DNA of 64,000 nucleotides from a virus: the IMG/VR virus record IMGVR_UViG_3300017971_000275, positions 1 through 64,000 of that record. One strand, 5' to 3'. The notes under the pieces were generated by a model that saw nothing but the letters and a program-made list of their open reading frames with translations, made no database searches and had not been told where the DNA came from. The translations under genes and the position numbers were made by a program. Positions 53,653 to 63,759 of the stretch are shown here, one piece after another (the first letter of the stretch is position 1; every line of letters begins with the position of its first letter).

Positions 53653-53659
53653 GTCTGAT

Positions 53660-53745
53660 TGCTCGCACCGGGAGTCGAACCCGGATAGGGACTAAGCCCC
53701 GGGGGATTTTAAGTCCCCTGTGTCTACCTACTTCACCATGCGAGC
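53660..53745 (-). tRNA. tRNA-Leu(TAA)
   Basis: GCTCGCA/TGCGAGC acceptor, GGGGA-CTTAAAA-TCCCC, long variable arm, TTCGACT T-loop. Confidence 0.92.
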
Positions 53746-53752
53746 ATAGTAG

Positions 53753-53950
53753 CTACTCATCAAGTATATGACGGTCCAAACGTTCTTTGGCAACCTCTTC
53801 TACCGATTCTCTGGTGACGTTGGGGTTCTCTATGTTGGCGTTGCCGAACGCGAAGCTGATCCTCTGCTCCTGCCGCTCCTCGTTGGTCATCGGCCGTTTG
53901 GAGAGCTCCTCAGCTTTTTTATACAGCTCCTCTTCAGAACGACGTGTCAT
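53753..53950 (-). CDS. small hypothetical protein
   Basis: GAGGA RBS; EQRISFAFGN. Confidence 0.6.
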   Translation of the reverse strand: MTRRSEEELYKKAEELSKRPMTNEERQEQRISFAFGNANIENPNVTRESVEEVAKERLDRHILDE

Positions 53951-54101
53951 TCCTCTTCCTCCCAGGTGCCTTCGTCAACCTGCTTGACTACAAAATCCAC
54001 AAACCAATTGGGGACCTCGCAGGCGCCCGAGCTTGTGGTGTAAGGTATGAGCTCATTGGACATGACTCCGTAAAGCTCCAGAATAGAATCAGCTGCGCTG
54101 C

Positions 54102-54350
54102 TCAAGCTTCGCTCCTAGTATTATGCGTCTCCTGCTTCCACGACCACTCTCCGGTGCGAGGGTCCCATTCACTTTTGCATTTTCGGCAACGCAAAAATCC
54201 ACTGAGCACCTGCAGCTTCTCATGACATCTATTGCACACTGTTGGCGCATCACCATCCAGGAATCTGTTTATCACCTCAGTAAGGAGTTCTACCTCTAAA
54301 TGAAGATGTATCACAACGGTTTCGTTGTCGTGCCTACCGACCAAGCTCAT
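54102..54350 (-). CDS. zinc-ribbon protein
   Basis: CNRC...CRKC. Confidence 0.55.
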   Translation of the reverse strand: MSLVGRHDNETVVIHLHLEVELLTEVINRFLDGDAPTVCNRCHEKLQVLSGFLRCRKCKSEWDPRTGEWSWKQETHNTRSEA

Positions 54351-54493
54351 TATACACCCCTTCTACCCCAATCCAGGTCTGAAGTATCGGTTGCCGTCGT
54401 GGTCCACGGATACCGTGGCGACGCCTATGACCTTGTTTTCTTCGTTGATACTTTGCAGCGTTACCGCCTGCCCGTAATGGAGATCTGTGTGGC

Positions 54494-54907
54494 CTATGCT
54501 CTTTTCAACAAGCTCGGGGTCAAACACGTACTCGCCCCACTTGGATTTTTCTCTTCATCCACAAAAACCACAGGCCGGTACTTTGGGTTGAAGCGACCCG
54601 CTACCTCACGAAGCAAAACCTGCACGACCCCGTCAAGCCGTTGTATTTCCTCTGCCATGGCAGTAAGAGTTTCAGATACCTTTGTTGGGAAGTCTTGCAT
54701 GGGGACGTAATCGAGGTCCGCCCTGTAGTTGGCTATATGCGGTCCGACACCATCCCAGCTGTAACTCCTACCACCATCACTATCGTCCAGGTACGAGCCA
54801 CAGCCCAAGCAAACGTAACCATGCCTCAGGCGAAACCACTCCGCATCCCGCGTATTGTTGGAACAGTGCCAACAAGGCTCAGGCTCTTTTTTGTTCTGTT
54901 CGCTCAT
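54494..54907 (-). CDS. zinc-ribbon protein
   Basis: CWHC...CLGC; ATGA overlap. Confidence 0.6.
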   Translation of the reverse strand: MSEQNKKEPEPCWHCSNNTRDAEWFRLRHGYVCLGCGSYLDDSDGGRSYSWDGVGPHIANYRADLDYVPMQDFPTKVSETLTAMAEEIQRLDGVVQVLLREVAGRFNPKYRPVVFVDEEKNPSGASTCLTPSLLKRA

Positions 54908-55131
54908 GGGTTTTTCCTGGGAAATTTTCTTATGAGATCAAACCAGCTGTGCGTAAGGACAGGAGAGCCACAAACTGGGCAGAGTGGCCTGGACTCACCA
55001 GCTTCGTAGTCCTCGTCTGAGGCGAGAGTATGGTCGTAGCAGACACAGCAGAAATACACACTGACATCAGTCGCGTTTGCTGTGTTCGTGACGTCAACGT
55101 CGTCTGAGCATAGCATTTTAGGTTCACTCAT
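54904..55131 (-). CDS. zinc-ribbon protein
   Basis: CCVC...CPVC; AAGGAG RBS. Confidence 0.6.
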   Translation of the reverse strand: MSEPKMLCSDDVDVTNTANATDVSVYFCCVCYDHTLASDEDYEAGESRPLCPVCGSPVLTHSWFDLIRKFPRKNP

Positions 55132-55146
55132 GCAGAAACTCCTTTA

Positions 55147-55220
55147 TGCTGCTGGTGAGAGTCGAACTCACAACATCTCGATTTTGAGTCGAGCGCCTCT
55201 GCCGATTGGGCCACAGCAGC
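55147..55220 (-). tRNA. tRNA-Leu(CAA), short variable loop
   Basis: GCTGCTG/CAGCAGC, CTCGA-CTCAAAA-TCGAG, GTGAG-TTCGACT-CTCAC. Confidence 0.88.
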
Positions 55221-55224
55221 TTAT

Positions 55225-55308
55225 TGCTGGCGGAGGGACTCGAACCCCCACGGGATTTCTCCCACTGGATCCTAAATCCAGGGTGGCTACCAATTACACC
55301 ACGCCAGC
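55225..55308 (-). tRNA. tRNA-Leu(TAG)
   Basis: GCTGGCG/CGCCAGC, CTGGA-TTTAGGA-TCCAG, long variable arm, TTCGAGT. Confidence 0.92.
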
Positions 55309-55423: not shown

Positions 55424-56455
55424 CTAAATCTGGAACGCTCTGGTGAGCTTCCAGCCTTTGCGAGGATCCCATCCCTCAGACATTACCATCGACGCGTACA
55501 GGATGCTATCCGTGTTCGTGTCCGAGGCGATCTGCCCGAAGAACTGGTCGTTGCGGATCGTGGTCAGTCTGGCGACAGTGCTCCGTCCCTGCTCTGTCTC
55601 CTTGTGGAAAGGAGTATCCAACAGATCGCGCACCTGCTTCCTGACTAGCTCATCCTGCTGCTGGTCGGCGCTCTCCAACGCGTCACACAAGGCGTCCATG
55701 TTGGTGAGGTCATCTACCTGCAGAGGCGTTCTGGTCTTGAGAACCTTGTCCGCATCCTGCTTCTGGCGCGAAGCCATGATGGCAGCAGAACCGTAGCAAA
55801 CACGGACCAGTGGTTCCCATACAGATTTCCAGTACGCAGCTGAAGGAGCTCGCTCGACGCCAACCACGTTACCGCTGATCAGGATGATGGCACCAACCTG
55901 GTTGTCTACGATCTCGAACTCTGCGATGAACTGATCCAGCTCCTCGGCGAACTGCTGCATGTACTGCACCAGGTTCTGTGTGGAGCTCATACCAGATTGC
56001 GCAGAAAAGGAGCCGATGGACTGCCATAGCTTGTTGTACCGTCGATCCTTTCTCTTCTCCAACGCTGGACGACGCAAAGCCAGCGGCAGAATCAGCATCT
56101 TGTGCTGGTCCTCGCGAATGTAGCCACCCTGCGTAGCCTGGATGCACATGGCGTTGTCCCAGACCTCCCGTCCCTTCGGAGGAACGATACCAGCGGTTGC
56201 CATCGCATGGTCCTGCGCTGCCTGCTTGACAACGTAACCAACATGTGTTGGCAGCAGAACTGGCTTGCCCGAAGGGTTCGAGAAGACCATTTCTCCGTAG
56301 TTGCGCGTCCCGACGCGGACCACGTCTGGATTCTCGAAGCGGTCATCCTGTAGATCTTCATCGAGGATCAACGGAATCACCTGCATCACACCGACCGTCT
56401 GGATGCGCCCGACTTCGCAACCGCGAAGGATTTCTTTGATCGTTAGAGGCTGCAT
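55424..56455 (-). CDS. ARPP-like domain protein (ARPP-1/DUF6569-like)
   Basis: QTVGVMQVIPL, NPSGKPVLL, QDHAM..GIVP, CIQ, QVGAIILISG.VVGVE; coupled to vWA gene. Confidence 0.6.
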   Translation of the reverse strand: MQPLTIKEILRGCEVGRIQTVGVMQVIPLILDEDLQDDRFENPDVVRVGTRNYGEMVFSNPSGKPVLLPTHVGYVVKQAAQDHAMATAGIVPPKGREVWDNAMCIQATQGGYIREDQHKMLILPLALRRPALEKRKDRRYNKLWQSIGSFSAQSGMSSTQNLVQYMQQFAEELDQFIAEFEIVDNQVGAIILISGNVVGVERAPSAAYWKSVWEPLVRVCYGSAAIMASRQKQDADKVLKTRTPLQVDDLTNMDALCDALESADQQQDELVRKQVRDLLDTPFHKETEQGRSTVARLTTIRNDQFFGQIASDTNTDSILYASMVMSEGWDPRKGWKLTRAFQI

Positions 56456-56456
56456 A

Positions 56457-58577
56457 TTACACCTCCTGCTGCAGCTCGTCCATCGGACGTTGTAGTACAG
56501 CCGCAGCCTGCTGACCGAGTTTCGTGTACAGGACGTAGTCTGTGCTTCGACCTGCTTTCTTGACTAGCCTACGGCGCCTTAGCGCTTCGACTGTCTGTGG
56601 CCTCACGCCAGCACCGCGGTAGTTGATTTTCCCGTCGACCTGGACTCTGTCCATATCAACGAGAGCATCGCGCATCGTCGGAGAGAGCTCACCGACAACG
56701 TCAAGTAGACGCTGCGTTACTGCCACCGAACGTCGCCGTCGTGGCTTGGGCAGCTCCACCTTAGGCGCCTGGAGCGCCTTCTGGCCCTGCCGCAGCAGCG
56801 CACGCAGACCGTTGAGCGGATCCTGCTCCAACGCTTCACGTAGAAGCGCAGTCCCGAAAGACTTGGGATCCTGCACAGGCATCGTCGGGATCACCCCTGA
56901 AGCCAATGAGCGCACCGAAGCAGTCTCCGCAGCAGACACAGGGTTCAGGTGGTAGATGGGCGTCGAAACCCCCATCTGCCTGATGGCCCGGACAGTCTCA
57001 GCGAAACGTCCAGCTGGGGTGTTGTCGTAACCATCGCTGATCACGTACACCGCAGACGGACGGTGATCGCGCATCGCTTTGGCCAGCGGCAACGCCAACG
57101 AGGTGTCCCCCGATGGACGTACCAGCCTACCACTGCGCTTACCACCAACCAGAACCCGACGGGCTCCTGCAGCTTGTAGCATGTCGCTCAGCGCCAAAGC
57201 AGATGCCATTGGACGAAGCTTCTGCGTCTCATCTCCAGACATCGAGCCTGAGGCGTCGACGATGACCACTGCATCAGAGCAGTCGAACGGCAGCAACGTG
57301 GCTGCCTGCTCAGCTTTCTCATCCAGCACATCGCGAATCTCCGCCGTCATCCCACGCTCGTAAGCGTAGACGTACAGCTTGATCGCGTCGTAGCGCTTCG
57401 GATCAAAGTCAGCCTTCGCCCCAGCTCGCTGCAGGCGCCGCTGGTGCTTGATCTTCTGCCCGTCAGTGAGCGCCTTCGTCTTCGACGTCAGACGCAATAC
57501 GTCGTCATGTGAGCGATCCTTGTGGAACACAGACCGGATACCTTCCAGAACTTCTGGGGGCAGGTTGCGTCCATCACGCAGGTCGTCACGCGCGTTGACG
57601 TAAGCCTTCAGGAGCGGAACCGTCCACGACTCTTCTGTGCTACCCAGCACAAACGCGACACACTGGCTGACGTGCCCTCGGTCGTTGTCGGTGTAGGCCC
57701 ACACGTGATCGTTGAGGATCCCGCGCTCTTTTTGCGTCCAGTGACGCTTACGGCAAATGCTGGCCACCATTGAAGCGGCGCGCTTACCCCACGCGTGCTG
57801 GAGCGCCCGACGCATCTTCCGGCGGTACTTGACAGCCCACCAGTCGAGCTTATCGGACCCCAAGATTGAGGTCAGGATCACCCGGCGCGTACGCTTATTG
57901 TTGCAGCCCGACTGATGCAGCATCTCGAAGAGCTGGAACATACGCGGAGCGGTAACCGCATTGACCAGGGCGGTGATGAGCTCGCGCTCACGCTGCAGGT
58001 CATACTGCGTAGGACGTCCCACTCCTGGCCACTCCAACAGCATCCACGCGGCCAGCTTACGTGCGTTGTCCGTCAAACCTGACAGGCACGACAGCAATCC
58101 GTAGGCGCCGCGGTCGATACTGAACATCGCGGCGTGCGCCAGCTTCTCGGCGCGCTGCTGGTCTTCCTTGGTGTTGTAGTGCGTTGCCCGGTTCATACCA
58201 GTCGTCGCCTGATCCAAGTAAGACGCCACTACGCGTCCAACGATCCGCTGCTCGCGCGGGTTGAGGTTTACTCTATCACCGCGCAATAGTTTCTTGGCGA
58301 GGCCAGGAACCTCTGGGATCGCGTAGCGCTCGCAGAAAATGCGGTTGCTGGTGCACTTATTGTACACCTTGTCCGCATCGGCTTGGTCTGGAACGATGTA
58401 ACCGTCCAGTAGCCTACCGTTGGGACCAGGAACTGCTTTGAGTCCCGGCTCCACGGACAAGCCGAGCTTGAGCCCGAACTTGCGCCCGCGCTCGCTGCCG
58501 TCGATGAACAACACGTGAGAGGTGGACTTCGCCCCCAGCTCACGGCGCAACTTGGTCGTTTGTAGTCCCTTACGCAT
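56457..58577 (-). CDS. TROVE/Ro60-like helical domain plus vWA protein
   Basis: Arg/Lys-rich helical N-region, then MIDAS VIVDASGSM, GDTS and VISDGYDN; start at MRKG after AAAGGGA. Confidence 0.72.
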   Translation of the reverse strand: MRKGLQTTKLRRELGAKSTSHVLFIDGSERGRKFGLKLGLSVEPGLKAVPGPNGRLLDGYIVPDQADADKVYNKCTSNRIFCERYAIPEVPGLAKKLLRGDRVNLNPREQRIVGRVVASYLDQATTGMNRATHYNTKEDQQRAEKLAHAAMFSIDRGAYGLLSCLSGLTDNARKLAAWMLLEWPGVGRPTQYDLQRERELITALVNAVTAPRMFQLFEMLHQSGCNNKRTRRVILTSILGSDKLDWWAVKYRRKMRRALQHAWGKRAASMVASICRKRHWTQKERGILNDHVWAYTDNDRGHVSQCVAFVLGSTEESWTVPLLKAYVNARDDLRDGRNLPPEVLEGIRSVFHKDRSHDDVLRLTSKTKALTDGQKIKHQRRLQRAGAKADFDPKRYDAIKLYVYAYERGMTAEIRDVLDEKAEQAATLLPFDCSDAVVIVDASGSMSGDETQKLRPMASALALSDMLQAAGARRVLVGGKRSGRLVRPSGDTSLALPLAKAMRDHRPSAVYVISDGYDNTPAGRFAETVRAIRQMGVSTPIYHLNPVSAAETASVRSLASGVIPTMPVQDPKSFGTALLREALEQDPLNGLRALLRQGQKALQAPKVELPKPRRRRSVAVTQRLLDVVGELSPTMRDALVDMDRVQVDGKINYRGAGVRPQTVEALRRRRLVKKAGRSTDYVLYTKLGQQAAAVLQRPMDELQQEV

Positions 58578-58652
58578 GGCGGGTGTCCCTTTCTGCACTG
58601 GTGAGAGTGCAAGTAATAATGTGTGGCCTTAATAAAAGCGGCCAGCAGATAC

Positions 58653-58689: not shown

Positions 58690-59083
58690 CGTACCACTAA
58701 CACGTGCGTGTGGAGCGCTTGCCGTGCCAGCAGGAGGCAGACAACACCGATTCGTACCACCCACACGTACGTTGGAAGCATATAGCATGGCAGCGACGTC
58801 CTTGCTGGACATGAACGTACCATCCACACATAGGTGGGAAGCACGAAGAGCTGGGCCGGCAGGTCTTCCAGAGGCAGCGTACCATCCACACATACGTGGG
58901 AAGCATCTATAGCCAGGAGGGCCAGTCCGTCGATCGCGGCGTACCACCCACACGTGCGTAGGGAGCACGTACTGTCTGCTTACCCCTAGGCAATGCCTGC
59001 AAGTACCACCCACACGTACATGGGAAGCGCTCAGCGCGTGGGCAGGGCCACAAGCCGGGGCTACGTACCACCCACATGCGTGT
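58690..59083 (-). CRISPR. CRISPR array: 6 full plus 1 partial 29-bp type I-E-like repeats, 6 spacers of 33-34 bp
   Basis: Repeats start (+) at 58690, 58753, 58816, 58878, 58940, 59002, 59064; minus-strand consensus GTGCTTCCCACGTACGTGTGGGTGGTACG; unique spacers. Confidence 0.88.
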
Positions 59084-60437
59084 TGCCGAGCTTCGCAACT
59101 CGGCTTTCCTGCTTCTTAGGCTCCGCTACCGGAGGTCCTCCACAGGCTGCTTTACCGCATGATCTGCGGCTGTTGAAATTTTTGATGTTCTTCGCAGCGT
59201 TGATGTCAGCGTTTTCTGTGTGGCCGCACTCAACGCACAAGAACACGTCTCTGGTTTTTCGGTTTTCCTTGGAAACATGCCCACACACGGAACACGCCTG
59301 CGACGTGTAGTGCGGTGGAACAAGGATCAGCTTGCCTCCTCGTTCTTTGAGCTTGTACTCCAGCATGGTCTCGAACATGCCCCAGCCTCTTTCCAAAATG
59401 GAGCGGTTCAGACCGGACTTTTGTTTGACGTTTTTGCCGGGCTCTTCTTTCGTGCCCTTAGCGCTTTTCGTCATGTTTGCTATCTGTAGATCTTCCAGCA
59501 CCACCACACCGTAACGCTCCGCGTAGTAGTTCGATTCTTTGTGGAGGAGATCTCGCAGCATCCGACTTTTACGCTTCCTGAGGCGAGACAAGTTGGCTAC
59601 AGCTTTACGATGGTTAGCCGAGTGTCTTGTCTTCAAACACTTCTTCTTGCGCTTCTTCTTAACCTTTTTTGTGTCGGTATCTATTTGGCGCACTGCCCGC
59701 TTGATGCGCTTTTCAATGGCAAAGTAGGCTTGCGGGAGCTCAACCAAACGACCGTCGCTGTCTGCGATCAAGTATTTGACGCCGCGGTCGATTCCCACGA
59801 TGGGAATATCTTTTTCCGCTGGTGTTGGAATCTCCAGTACGTAAGAGCACGACGCGTACCACTTACCAGCCTCAAGACAGATCGTACATCGACGCAAGGA
59901 TTTAAATTCCGGCATACGATGAGTTTTTGTGCGGATGTACCCTAAGCTTCTCCCGTAAACATAGATCATGCCATCAAGGAGCTTCCACGCAGAAGCTCCG
60001 AAAATGCCGATACCGACCGGTCTATTACGCCCTCGGAATTTTGGCTTACCTCCTCTACCTTCGTACCACGCGGTGAAAGCGCGGTTTACTGCTTCGACGA
60101 TCAAGATCATCGCGGCGCGCGGAACTCCTTTAAAGAAGTCCATTTTGCGGATCTCGGTGAGCTGCGCTGACATGCCCCGGCTAGCGTGCTGGAAGAATTC
60201 CTTCCAGCCCCGCTTCTTGGGATCCATCTCGATGCCCACCTGACGGTAAGCGTTGGTTAGCAGTCCTTCGTCATCGTAGCGCGTAGCCCGACGATGCGCA
60301 TACATAAACCGGTGCTCCAGCACTACGTTGTAAAGTACGCGTAGGCGCCATTCCCAGTCGCGCAGGATTTCTTCCTGTTGGGGTGTTGGATAAATGCGGT
60401 AACGAGTAGCGCGTTCCAGTTTGAGCTTCTCGCTCAT
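59061..60437 (-). CDS. tnpB: TnpB (IS200/IS605 OrfB) / Cas12f-like RNA-guided nuclease
   Basis: YRIYPT HTH, RuvC-I VGIDRG, RuvC-II VLEDL, CSVC...CVEC zinc finger, RuvC-III NADINAA; catalytic D-E-D intact. Confidence 0.93.
   Translation of the reverse strand: MSEKLKLERATRYRIYPTPQQEEILRDWEWRLRVLYNVVLEHRFMYAHRRATRYDDEGLLTNAYRQVGIEMDPKKRGWKEFFQHASRGMSAQLTEIRKMDFFKGVPRAAMILIVEAVNRAFTAWYEGRGGKPKFRGRNRPVGIGIFGASAWKLLDGMIYVYGRSLGYIRTKTHRMPEFKSLRRCTICLEAGKWYASCSYVLEIPTPAEKDIPIVGIDRGVKYLIADSDGRLVELPQAYFAIEKRIKRAVRQIDTDTKKVKKKRKKKCLKTRHSANHRKAVANLSRLRKRKSRMLRDLLHKESNYYAERYGVVVLEDLQIANMTKSAKGTKEEPGKNVKQKSGLNRSILERGWGMFETMLEYKLKERGGKLILVPPHYTSQACSVCGHVSKENRKTRDVFLCVECGHTENADINAAKNIKNFNSRRSCGKAACGGPPVAEPKKQESRVAKLGNTHVGGT
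59064..59170 (-). ncRNA. putative omega-RNA scaffold overlapping the tnpB 3' end and fused to the first repeat
   Basis: GCCTGTGGAG...AAGCAGGAA typical of IS605 right-end RNA; GCCGAGTT-GCGA-AGCTCGGC hairpin; 5' boundary uncertain. Confidence 0.6.
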
Positions 60438-60485
60438 GCGTAATGGTCCCCGGTAATGTGGTCCGCTTTTAGCGGACGGTAATAA

Positions 60486-60566
60486 ATCGAGGAAGTTTGA
60501 AGGTCGCGTGGTGAATGGTTTTCAAATGAGCGAAAAACTTCTGTAGCAACCTAAGCAGTCCTCGAT
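60486..60566 (-). ncRNA. Y-RNA-like unit A (conserved stem, no tRNA module)
   Basis: TCGAGGACTGC-TTAGGTTGC-TACAG...GCGACCTT-CAAACT-TCCTCGA. Confidence 0.7.
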
Positions 60567-60579
60567 ACTCGTAAATAGC

Positions 60580-60699
60580 TGGTGGAAATGTGAACGTCAA
60601 GTTTTGGTGAATTGCAGGACTCGAACCTGCGACCCTCTCGTTGATAGCGAGATGCTCATCCAACTGAGCTAAATTCTGTATTGACGTTGCCGTCCACCA
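60580..60699 (-). ncRNA. Y-RNA-like unit B (unpermuted tRNA module, ATC anticodon, 5-bp acceptor plus ACCA)
   Basis: TGGTGGACGGC-AACGTCAA-TACAG...TTGACGTT-CACATT-TCCACCA; D, anticodon and T arms intact. Confidence 0.75.
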
Positions 60700-60702
60700 A
60701 AA

Positions 60703-60748
60703 TGGAGCGCTTGGGAATCGAACCCTATCGAGCCACCAGGGTGCTCCA
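60703..60748 (-). ncRNA. mini tRNA-like element (acceptor plus T-arm only)
   Basis: GGAGCAC...TAGGG-TTCGATT-CCCAA-GCGCTCC-A. Confidence 0.5.
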
Positions 60749-60750
60749 GA

Positions 60751-60887
60751 AGAGGAAATGTGAAAGCAAAGAGAATGAGTTTTGAACTTCTCGGGCATAG
60801 AGAGCCCGAGCCTGGATTCGAACCAGGAACCTTTCGTTTTACGGACGAATGTTCTTCCAATTTTCTGTACTTGCTTTGCAGTCCTCT
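60751..60887 (-). ncRNA. Y-RNA-like unit C (tRNA module permuted at D-loop, GTA anticodon)
   Basis: AGAGGACTGC-AAAGCAAG-TACAG...GAAC-anticodon arm-T arm-CTCGGGC/GCCCGAG-GTTC...TTTGCTTT-CACATT-TCCTCT. Confidence 0.78.
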
Positions 60888-60930
60888 ACATCGAATATCT
60901 GTTCACCGCATGAGCAGTGGTTGTTTTAGA

Positions 60931-61055
60931 TAGAGGAAATGTGACAGCAGCAATTCCCAATGAACTTCTCCCCGTTAAAAGCCGGGGAGCTTGGATTCGA
61001 ACCAAGACCTATCACTTTGGAGGTGATTGTTCTGTACTTGCTGTGCAGTCCTCTA
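60931..61055 (-). ncRNA. Y-RNA-like unit D (tRNA module permuted at D-loop, CCA anticodon)
   Basis: TAGAGGACTGC-ACAGCAAG-TACAGAAC-A-ATCAC CTCCAAA GTGAT-T arm-CTCCCCG/CGGGGAG-GTTC...TGCTGT-CACATT-TCCTCTA. Confidence 0.78.
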
Positions 61056-61097
61056 CACCGTTTATCTGTTCGCCGCTTGCGCGACGGGTATTTTAAA

Positions 61098-61243
61098 TCG
61101 AGGAAGGGTATCGGTAGAAGATGGATTGTTTATCCACCGCATCAATAAGCGGTTGCCTTTACCAATTTGGCCACATCCCCCTAGTTGGGGATGCCAGGAC
61201 TTGAACCTGGAAAATTTTCCTGTACCTACCGATTAGTCCTCGA
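61098..61243 (-). ncRNA. Y-RNA-like unit E (tRNA module permuted between variable arm and T-arm)
   Basis: TCGAGGACTA-ATCGGTAGG-TACAG...T arm-CATCCCC/GGGGATG-D arm-ACCGC/GCGGT-variable arm...CTACCGAT-ACCCT-TCCTCGA. Confidence 0.78.
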
Positions 61244-61405
61244 AAAATGATTTCTCCTCACGTTATCGTAGGCTTTAGCAGCCTGCGCTCTTGTTGTCTT
61301 GATGCCCTCTCGGGCTTGCGTCGCGATGATCGTCCGGATCATCAGCTCTCTACGTTGCGCCTCATTACTGAGGATCGAGCGGATGTCAAGGCGTCTTCGC
61401 GGCAT
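61226..61405 (-). CDS. 59-aa basic hypothetical protein (below the ORF-track cutoff)
   Basis: MPRRRLDIRSILSNEAQRRELMIRTIIATQAREGIKTTRAQAAKAYDNVRRNHFSRTNR*. Confidence 0.5.
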   Translation of the reverse strand: MPRRRLDIRSILSNEAQRRELMIRTIIATQAREGIKTTRAQAAKAYDNVRRNHFSRTNR

Positions 61406-61420
61406 CTACCTAAAAATTAG

Positions 61421-61552
61421 TCGAGGAAATTCGAGAGTAAGAGGCGAAAGTAACAAGGAGCGGGATTTGAACCCGCGACCTTCGGTTTATAAGACCGACG
61501 CTCAACCAACTGAGCTATCATTGTTGTTCTGTACTTACTCTGCCGTCCTCGA
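61421..61552 (-). ncRNA. Y-RNA-like unit F (unpermuted tRNA module, TAT anticodon)
   Basis: TCGAGGACGGC-AGAGTAAG-TACAG...cloverleaf TCGGT-CTTATAA-ACCGA...CTTACTCT-CGAATT-TCCTCGA. Confidence 0.78.
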
Positions 61553-61780
61553 AATCGTAAAGCTTGCTCCGTGGAGTTTTCCACCCACCCAGCCTAGCTC
61601 ACCTTTTAAAGAGAGGGTGACCTTTGCTGTGTCTTCCTTGAGTGGCGGTAGCTCCTCAAGTGTTTCCATGATTATAGGCAGCAGGATTTCCCTGTCAAGC
61701 TTTTTGTCAACCACGGAGGCAAATTCTTCGAGAAAAATCTGCTCCGCTTGAGCAGCGAGCTTTTGCTGCTTACTTGACAT
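61535..61780 (-). CDS. hypothetical protein
   Basis: Start MSSKQQ; stop lies inside unit F 5' stem. Confidence 0.55.
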   Translation of the reverse strand: MSSKQQKLAAQAEQIFLEEFASVVDKKLDREILLPIIMETLEELPPLKEDTAKVTLSLKGELGWVGGKLHGASFTISRTAE

Positions 61781-62009
61781 TGTCACACTCATTTCTCCTA
61801 TGCTGCCAGTAGAACACAAATAAGTCCTTGACACCAACAGCAATACCTGCAGCTATGGCCGCCCACAGACCTGTGGAAGTATCCTCTCCCGGCCATAACG
61901 TTGGGCGGAGCAGCAGGAAAAAGACGAAGCCACTGCAGACCCCGAGGAGCGCGGTGAACACGATCGTCAGTAAGCGCAGCTGCCATTTATACTGAGCTGT
62001 TGTTCCCAT
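61770..62009 (-). CDS. two-TM membrane protein
   Basis: SGFVFFLLLRPTLWP; paralog of next gene. Confidence 0.65.
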   Translation of the reverse strand: MGTTAQYKWQLRLLTIVFTALLGVCSGFVFFLLLRPTLWPGEDTSTGLWAAIAAGIAVGVKDLFVFYWQHRRNECDNVK

Positions 62010-63686: not shown

Positions 63687-63759
63687 TGGGCACGCCGGGA
63701 TTCGAACCCGGAAATCTGCGGACTGAGCGCAGCGCCTTTGCCTGTTAGGCCACGTGCCC
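63687..63759 (-). tRNA. tRNA-Leu(CAG), short variable loop
   Basis: GGGCACG/CGTGCCC, CTGCG-CTCAGTC-CGCAG, CCGGG-TTCGAAT-CCCGG. Confidence 0.8.

Follow-up and report, generated by a model that had tools for sequence, protein, structure and literature searches.

A 64,000-nucleotide stretch of viral DNA (the window; positions 1 to 64,000 of IMG/VR record IMGVR_UViG_3300017971_000275) carries on its minus strand, at 60487-61552, an array of six small RNA units upstream of a gene for a protein with a predicted Ro60 fold, which is followed in turn by a gene of the ARPP family. The six units are a real, structured family of paralogous RNAs with compensatory changes, and the order of RNA, Ro60-like gene and ARPP gene is conserved in large phages and bacteria. 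On balance, we favour the explanation that these are undescribed Y-RNA-like small RNAs, partners of a divergent Ro60 paralogue and of ARPP, which present tRNA mimics in a conflict or repair role centred on tRNA. The window makes up the initial 64 kb of a record of 73,299 bases (CheckV completeness 21), which is probably a fragment of a very large phage.

Six units with a common handle

The pattern GGACN{11,12}TACAG has seven matches in the window, six of them on the minus strand at 60541-61548 and the seventh an unrelated match on the plus strand, where 0.72 would be expected by chance and the maximum in 100 shuffles was three. All six units found in this way are followed by the complementary strands of two stems, in the layout stem 1 (TNGNGGA / TCCNCNA), C(T/G)GC or CTA, stem 2, TACAG, a cargo, stem 2', a CACATT-like stretch and stem 1'. 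The resulting handle consists of a stem 1 of 6-7 bp, an asymmetric internal loop (5' A-C-K-N, 3' mostly Y-R-A-A-Y), a stem 2 of about 8 bp whose sequence is different in each unit, and then T-N-C-A-G. Both stems are part of the minimum free energy (MFE) structure in six of six units (z -3.3 to -4.3). A previous interpretation made from the DNA letters alone (the sequence-only reading) had proposed six minus-strand units on one scaffold, which is borne out by the pattern count against shuffles, the paired strands and the folds. Its further claim that stem 2 varies yet stays paired holds in all six folds, with the reservation that the pairing in unit D is imperfect (6 clean pairs).

The cargos carried by this handle are of several kinds. 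In unit F (61421-61552, minus strand, as are all units) the handle is joined to an unpermuted cloverleaf at the acceptor end, with anticodon TAT (ARAGORN Ile-tat; Rfam tRNA 69.5 bits; fold z -3.95), and unit B (60580-60699) likewise carries an unpermuted cloverleaf with anticodon ATC (Asp-atc; 52.1 bits; z -4.21). Only these two cloverleaves are recognised by tRNA models, while units D and C give partial Rfam tRNA matches of 26.0 and 26.6 bits that remain below the gathering score. Permutation was assessed by doubling each cargo head-to-tail and asking ARAGORN for a tRNA across the joint. Unit D (60930-61056), in which the handle with the imperfect stem 2 carries a tRNA-like cargo with anticodon CCA, is best described as circularly permuted because its Trp-cca call, at the default threshold, arises only from the doubled cargo; the break lies in the D region, some 20-25 nt into the tRNA-like part as counted from its 5' end. 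Unit E (61098-61243; fold z -4.33), which has orthologues in the related loci L008-L011, also carries a permuted tRNA-like cargo and gives a junction-spanning call with a 4-base 'anticodon' in an 8-nt loop. Its break falls between the variable arm and the T arm, so that its parts follow in the order T arm, closed acceptor hairpin, D arm, anticodon arm with the 8-nt loop, and variable arm. Unit C (60750-60888) has a handle nearly duplicating that of D and an anticodon loop reading GTA, and its permuted cloverleaf is more weakly indicated, by an ARAGORN call at a lowered threshold only and by an MFE fold that has anticodon and T arms, an acceptor hairpin that is closed, and a D stem of GAAC/GUUC. 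Unit A (60487-60566; fold z -3.40) bears a short, plain hairpin in which neither ARAGORN, including the doubled cargo, nor the MFE fold reveals tRNA features.

Across the window and its relatives, doubled-cargo calls were obtained for 19 of 25 cargos of at least 88 nt, compared with 0 of 25 reversed and 0 of 250 shuffled ones. The sequence-only reading had thus correctly read the anticodon loops (ATC, GTA, CCA, an 8-nt loop and TAT), the unpermuted cloverleaves of B and F joined at the acceptor end, the opening of E just before the T arm and the absence of a tRNA module from A. Of its proposal that C and D are both permuted, opened in the D-loop with a closed acceptor, the part on D stands, through the doubled-cargo call, and that on C is weak.

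Compensatory variation in stem 2, also part of that reading, is found for both stems across homologues. In the 27 unpermuted (T-class) units, both-sided changes occur in six of seven stem-1 pairs and in all eight stem-2 pairs, 89% of cells pair as opposed to at most 49% with slid partners, and the covariation score of 0.605 (at most 0.168 with slid partners) is reached by none of 500 shuffles. The units were chosen by a descriptor that demands pairing, so the percentage paired in stems 1 and 2 is partly built in and only the variety of pair types is informative for them. Stems that played no part in unit selection are paired at 99% (D), 95% (anticodon) and 90% (T), and the acceptor helix at only 71.9%. 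Among 31 short-cargo (S-class) units, both-sided changes are seen in six of eight stem-2 pairs. A covariance model (R1), built from short-cargo units and kept out of the surveys described below, found only units A and F in the window with default filters. With filters off, A (30.3 bits; a member of its training set), C (19.0 bits, E 0.017) and F (17.9 bits, full-length) were found at E<0.05 and D and B at E of about 1.7-1.8, and E was missed; the model misses units because the long cargo insert defeats it.

Protein partners and distribution of the cassette

The gene downstream of the array (56457-58598, minus strand) encodes a 713-aa divergent Ro60-like protein with a HEAT-repeat ring and a vWA domain that has MIDAS residues. 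In the database the protein begins 7 codons further downstream. The AlphaFold model, which covers residues 105-620, is confident (pLDDT 93.3, pTM 0.90), and Foldseek places Ro60 at all of ranks 1-9. With VIA-align, the top 10 rows are likewise all Ro60, from frog, human, phage phiLo and Deinococcus (Z 18.9-12.1, 397-404 residues, rmsd 4.1-5.6 Å), and the alignment spans both domains, whereas isolated vWA domains reach a Z of 10 at most. Atlas clusters named TROVE (TM 0.84 and 0.83) are a lead only. Of the MIDAS residues, D441 and S445 never vary, and conservation of S443 is 90% or higher. Judged by its model, the protein has the Ro60 fold (TROVE ring and vWA), although no sequence method shows so: Pfam returns a sub-threshold vWA match only, sequence searches of the PDB with phmmer and with a profile gave no match, and none of the 117 database homologues is annotated as TROVE. 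The link to a TROVE-vWA protein implied in the sequence-only reading is therefore upheld, as regards the fold, through model comparison. A six-frame TROVE search of five carrier genomes matched only other, canonical genes. Since one of these, in Minicystis rosea, lies about 4 kb upstream of the cassette within the same tRNA array, the Ro60-like protein is a distinct paralogue.

Immediately downstream, at 55424-56455 on the minus strand, lies the gene of an ARPP-family protein (Pfam ARPP-1, 1e-35) in whose alignment Q19, Q81, H83, C104 and Q106 are invariant. Its place as a member of the cassette is an addition of this analysis. As an ARPP gene adjoins the Ro60-like gene at 77 of 80 viral and 54 of 67 cellular loci (7 of the 13 remaining cellular loci are cut by contig ends), ARPP appears from gene order to be an obligate third partner.

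These loci were collected with a profile of 36 homologues of the 713-aa protein, which led to 120 viral places, of which 80 loci were kept, and to 67 loci in bacterial or archaeal genomes. A first, loose handle descriptor was dropped as too permissive (541 matches against 402 on reversed sequence), and a strict one gave 169 against 57. A descriptor anchored on TAC[AG]G was matched at 129 of 448 anchors up to 3 kb upstream of the gene on the same strand and at 33 of 3318 elsewhere (Fisher p 8.5e-95), with a match at 49 of the 80 viral loci. Some loci have TTCAG, TCCAG or TTCTG in place of TACAG. A looser junction motif had 151 viral matches in the zone and 67 elsewhere, and 45 and 24 respectively in cellular genomes. 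By this motif the handle lies upstream of the Ro60-like gene at no fewer than 57 of 80 viral and 30 of 67 cellular loci, both counts being lower bounds, as units visible by eye in loci L012, L013 and L097 escape the descriptor. The co-occurrence with TROVE-vWA and ARPP genes to which the sequence-only reading had pointed is accordingly widespread.

The design of one handle with varying cargo and differing junction points, proposed for the window, recurs in many of these relatives. The 151 distinct cargos classed comprise 106 viral ones (46 short hairpins, 21 with a linear tRNA call, 16 with a junction-only call and 23 long cargos without a call) and 45 cellular ones (23, 3, 2 and 17, respectively). 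Permuted cargos are broken mostly between the variable arm and the T arm, and in a few cases elsewhere. Bacteria often have only one or two units, about 150-300 nt from the start codon. The single-stranded motifs of the handle are conserved across loci whose proteins are only about 25% identical, which suggests a dedicated binder. Cultured carriers of the cassette are Thalassoglobus neptunius KOR42, Stieleria magnilauensis TBK1r and Minicystis rosea DSM 24000. In Minicystis rosea (L097/L160) and in two further bacterial loci (L111, L115), the Ro60-like/ARPP cassette sits inside arrays of at least 12 tRNA genes on the same strand.

Closer relatives of the window array help to interpret its layout. 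L008, L010 and L011 share these unit types and their order, and there the array immediately precedes the homologous gene and is bracketed by a consensus promoter and a terminator-like hairpin. The unit types are also present in L009, where other DNA comes before the last unit. The five units of L008 are counterparts of F, E, D, B and A, its last unit being equivalent to A, which makes unit C of the window an additional near-copy of D. Array and gene, neither of which shows decay, are separated in the window by a 1.9-kb TnpB block, and this block is regarded as an insertion because the three relatives have the same unit types directly before the gene. A sigma-70-type promoter (TTGACA-16 nt-TATAAT; 61671-61698, minus strand), with 12 of 12 consensus matches, precedes unit F by about 110 nt, and equivalent promoters can be read in front of the arrays of L008-L011.

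Relation to known RNAs and alternative explanations

At the gathering score, Rfam finds only tRNA in the window, in 7 viral loci and in 16 cellular loci, and no YrlA or Y_RNA match appears in the region 60300-61800 at E≤10; no described family in the Rfam scan covers the handle. Our literature search, which took in freely readable papers without supplements, found no description of the RNA family or of a Ro60-like/ARPP/RNA cassette. The paired 5' and 3' ends with a conserved internal loop, as seen from covariation and MFE folds, are what characterises Y RNAs in the broad sense, and on these sequence grounds the units appear to be an undescribed Y-RNA-like family, akin in kind to known Y RNAs.

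As far as the available text of the papers cited here goes, the terminal stem of Y RNAs is where Ro60 binds, and the Y RNA genes of bacteria and phages adjoin Ro60 genes (Chen et al. 2014, PMC4201824; Wang et al. 2018, preprint 10.1101/312249; PMC12135203), with YrlA genes lying within 4 kb of Ro60 on the same strand (PMC4201824). The window units share the strand of the Ro60-fold gene and, at 1.9-3.0 kb upstream of it, are within that distance. YrlA and its partner Ro60 (Rsr) resemble the window in several further respects: a locus encodes several distinct RNAs, a protein-binding stem arises from pairing between the 5' and 3' ends (binding by the window protein would follow by analogy), and the remainder mimics a tRNA with T and D arms, the loop-closed acceptor being shared with the permuted units. 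A comparison of YrlA with a circularly permuted tRNA has been made before (10.1101/312249), so permutation as such is not new for Y RNAs. In YrlA, however, the stem replaces the anticodon arm, whereas the units keep this arm and its loop and place the handle elsewhere. The YrlA arrangement of T arm, closed acceptor and D arm is seen in D and E and weakly in C, while the acceptor ends of B and F are open and A lacks a tRNA module. The units also differ from YrlA in their varying break point, in the unpermuted state of some cargos and in arrays of up to six units, and the window protein differs from Rsr as a separate paralogue invisible to Pfam TROVE with ARPP as a fixed gene partner.

Similar comparisons can be drawn with three other systems. 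The Ro60 of Thermus phage phiLo binds two stem-bulge-stem RNAs, Yrl1 and Yrl2, encoded upstream of its gene (PMC12135203), an arrangement much like that of the window, and its structures (PDB 9KOP, 9L5Y) align to the window model with Z 16.1 and 15.8 at about 12% sequence identity. Its RNAs have a CGAA bulge, and the available text of that paper mentions neither a tRNA-like cargo nor ARPP. Permuted tRNA genes of red algae and an archaeon are described as sharing the order with the 3' half first, the loop-closed acceptor and the paired termini, but are matured to working tRNAs through a bulge-helix-bulge junction and a splicing endonuclease (10.1101/312249; PMC3978253), while the terminal structure of the units is a two-stem handle of 14-15 bp that is common to non-tRNA cargos. 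Conflict systems with the same ARPP family and its conserved Cys and Gln were described by Iyer, Burroughs and Aravind in 2022; the text available ties ARPP to ADP-ribosylglycohydrolase systems, HIRAN, WYL or a deacetylase, and not to a Ro60-like protein or an RNA array (PMC9503650). No RtcB or RtcA turned up in a Pfam scan of 19 flanking open reading frames (ORFs), which included no search aimed at them. The cassette is best read as a second lineage of the Ro60/Y-RNA kind, distinguished by a separate handle and partner enzyme and by the anticodon arm retained in its cargos.

The anticodon itself is hypervariable in close orthologues, which is a new point of this analysis. In 31 close pairs of unpermuted T-class cargos, with at most 15% difference between bodies, differences affect 4.8% of body sites, 34% of sites in the 7-nt loop and 50.5% of those in the anticodon triplet, roughly 10-fold more differences per site than in the rest of the tRNA-like body, though these pairs are not independent and the baseline is the cargo bodies rather than ordinary phage tRNA genes. 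Loop positions 37 and 38 are conserved (entropy 0.38 and 0.46). Unit F and its counterpart in L009 differ at 0 of 54 body sites and at 2 of 3 triplet positions, and F-type bodies differing at 0-8 of 54 sites carry TAT, ATC, TGA, TGC, AGT or ACA. An anticodon matched to a conserved body, as expected of tRNA identity, is therefore not what these orthologues show; the permuted ones follow the same pattern. A search for preferred anticodons (T as the middle base in 9 of 18 permuted cargos and in 5 of the 24 that are unpermuted) was given up, as the numbers are too small and the sequences too related. The hypervariability fits the idea of a 'panel of decoys' without proving it.

In the explanation favoured here, the handle would be the docking site of the Ro60-like ring, by analogy with the stem-bulge-stem of Y RNAs for Ro60, and the cargo would be presented as an L-shaped tRNA mimic. 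ARPP, with its invariant Cys, His and Gln, would act as the enzymatic or effector arm of a particle that responds to tRNA-directed attack or damage, perhaps by baiting nucleases that target the anticodon or by recruiting factors that handle or repair tRNA. A more specific scheme, which we hold only tentatively and consider rather doubtful, is that of a programmable display, in which the Ro60-like ring and the ARPP enzyme hold a panel of tRNA mimics with the anticodon triplet as a fast-evolving specificity element, serving as baits or sensors for anticodon nucleases or as anticodon-to-anticodon guides to host tRNAs. Phages would then expand the panel, up to six units, in an arms race, and bacteria would keep one or two units inside tRNA arrays.

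Several observations weigh against a Ro60-linked particle of Y-RNA-like units. Pfam TROVE (PF05731) matches none of the 36 homologues at E≤1, and hhalign against four canonical TROVE proteins gives a weak 63.6% probability over 79 columns. The YrlA model (RF02553, gathering 69 bits) reaches at best 11.3 bits in the record, on a T arm only, compared with 30.6-45.9 bits in the control beside canonical TROVE genes of the same bacterial genomes (L161-L163), and the YrlA 5' motif GNCGAAN0-1G occurs in 0 of 6 units; both results agree with the view, already taken in the sequence-only reading, that the units are distinct from YrlA. The selection of units by a pairing-demanding descriptor and the relatedness of the anticodon pairs count on the same side, and the fast change of the triplet could partly reflect relaxed constraint. 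The terminator-like hairpin between array and gene in the relatives L008-L011 means that co-transcription of the two is not implied. Finally, F and B score very well as tRNAs and might in fact be precursors of real tRNAs.

This last point leads to the main rival, which we consider unlikely, namely that the units are precursors of working tRNAs in which the handle is a processing stalk for an RNase III-like enzyme or RNase P/Z, the permuted units mature by ligation or circularisation, and the Ro60-like protein and ARPP aid maturation or quality control. Besides the scores of F and B, it could draw on the linear ARAGORN calls in 21 viral and 3 cellular cargos and the junction-spanning ones in 16 and 2, on the conserved loop positions 37-38, on the bacterial cassettes inside long same-strand tRNA arrays, and on permuted pre-tRNAs known, from the available text of the sources, to be matured via a terminal stem (10.1101/312249; PMC3978253). 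Two findings in particular speak against it, the hairpin cargos and the swapping of anticodons between unchanged bodies. Short hairpins without tRNA features make up 46 of the 106 distinct viral cargos and 23 of the 45 cellular ones, and identical or nearly identical orthologous bodies carry anticodons of different amino acids (e.g. TAT, ATC, TGA, TGC, AGT). The poorly paired acceptor helix of the T class, the 8-nt anticodon loop of unit E and the handle motifs kept despite the low protein identity, which suggest a dedicated binder, also fit precursors badly. We know of no bacterial splicing endonuclease, which counts against precursors as well. The YrlA preprint makes the same statement (10.1101/312249).

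Alternatively, the units could be cis-acting leader or sensor elements of the Ro60-like/ARPP operon, for example tRNA-shaped baits whose cleavage or binding controls read-through. Their constant position upstream on the same strand, the short distance to the start codon of the one or two units in many bacteria and the terminator-like hairpin in L008-L011 would agree with this, but arrays of 3-6 units extend up to 1.1 kb and in the window the array is parted from its gene by the TnpB block with no sign of decay in either, so that we regard a purely cis-acting role as improbable. Least probable by far are selfish or mobile tRNA-derived repeats, or RNA parts of the TnpB element, unlinked to the Ro60-like gene. 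Although a TnpB/Cas12f-like gene with its own repeat array adjoins unit A, and units C and D resemble a recent tandem duplication, L008, L010 and L011 keep the same units, in unchanged order, right in front of the Ro60-like gene (no search for a TnpB gene was made there), no unit-like match was found elsewhere in the 73-kb record, and position and strand are fixed across at least 57 viral loci. A role as TnpB guide RNAs in particular is rejected in view of the shared unit order directly before the gene in those three loci.

Neighbouring features and significance

Among GenBank phages, the locus has no DNA relative, the window has no close DNA relative, and the repeat and TnpB region 58690-60437 has no match; at the protein level the only relative found there is an uncultured 462-kb phage. 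The ORF at 59061-60437 (minus strand, 458 aa) is TnpB/Cas12f-like (Pfam Cas12f1-like_TNB, 9.7e-25). Directly 3' of it, at 58690-59085 (minus strand), are seven direct repeats of at least 22 nt at a regular spacing of 62-63 nt, the first copy overlapping the end of the ORF. The repeats have a CRISPR-like geometry and could be, in this large phage, either a miniature type V array or a guide-RNA scaffold in iterated form.

Within the array, between units C and B (60704-60747, minus strand), is a mini-helix that lacks a handle and has a 7-bp closing stem and a T-arm-like loop (GGGTTCGATTCCC). It has a weak mascRNA-like Rfam match (16.7 bits, E 3.5), and L008 showed no counterpart. In each of the two spacers that precede units C and D (60890-60925 and 61057-61096, minus strand), a short GC hairpin is followed by AACAGATA, and these may be processing or termination signals between units. 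A very basic 59-aa ORF at 61226-61405 (minus strand) lies between units F and E and overlaps the 5' stem of E; for the small ORFs that overlap or flank the units (59, 102, 79 and 111 aa), tblastn found no match in the 80 viral loci. The window also contains four tRNA-Leu genes with four anticodons (taa, caa, tag, cag; ARAGORN) at 53659-55308 and 63687-63759 on the minus strand, two of which are only 73-74 nt long. This is short for leucine tRNAs, which normally have a long variable arm, and here too the anticodon may not match the body.

Ro60 and Y RNAs are conserved from bacteria to humans, and the role of the tRNA-like part of bacterial Y RNAs is the question on which this cassette bears. 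It would represent a second, unannotated Ro60 lineage, found in at least 80 viral contigs and in 67 bacterial species genomes. Some phage and bacterial 'tRNA genes' with odd anticodons would, on this reading, be parts of larger non-coding RNAs. The retained anticodon arm, the arrays, the fastest variation at the triplet and the presence of ARPP together point to a testable link between Ro60-type particles and attack on, or repair of, the tRNA anticodon loop.

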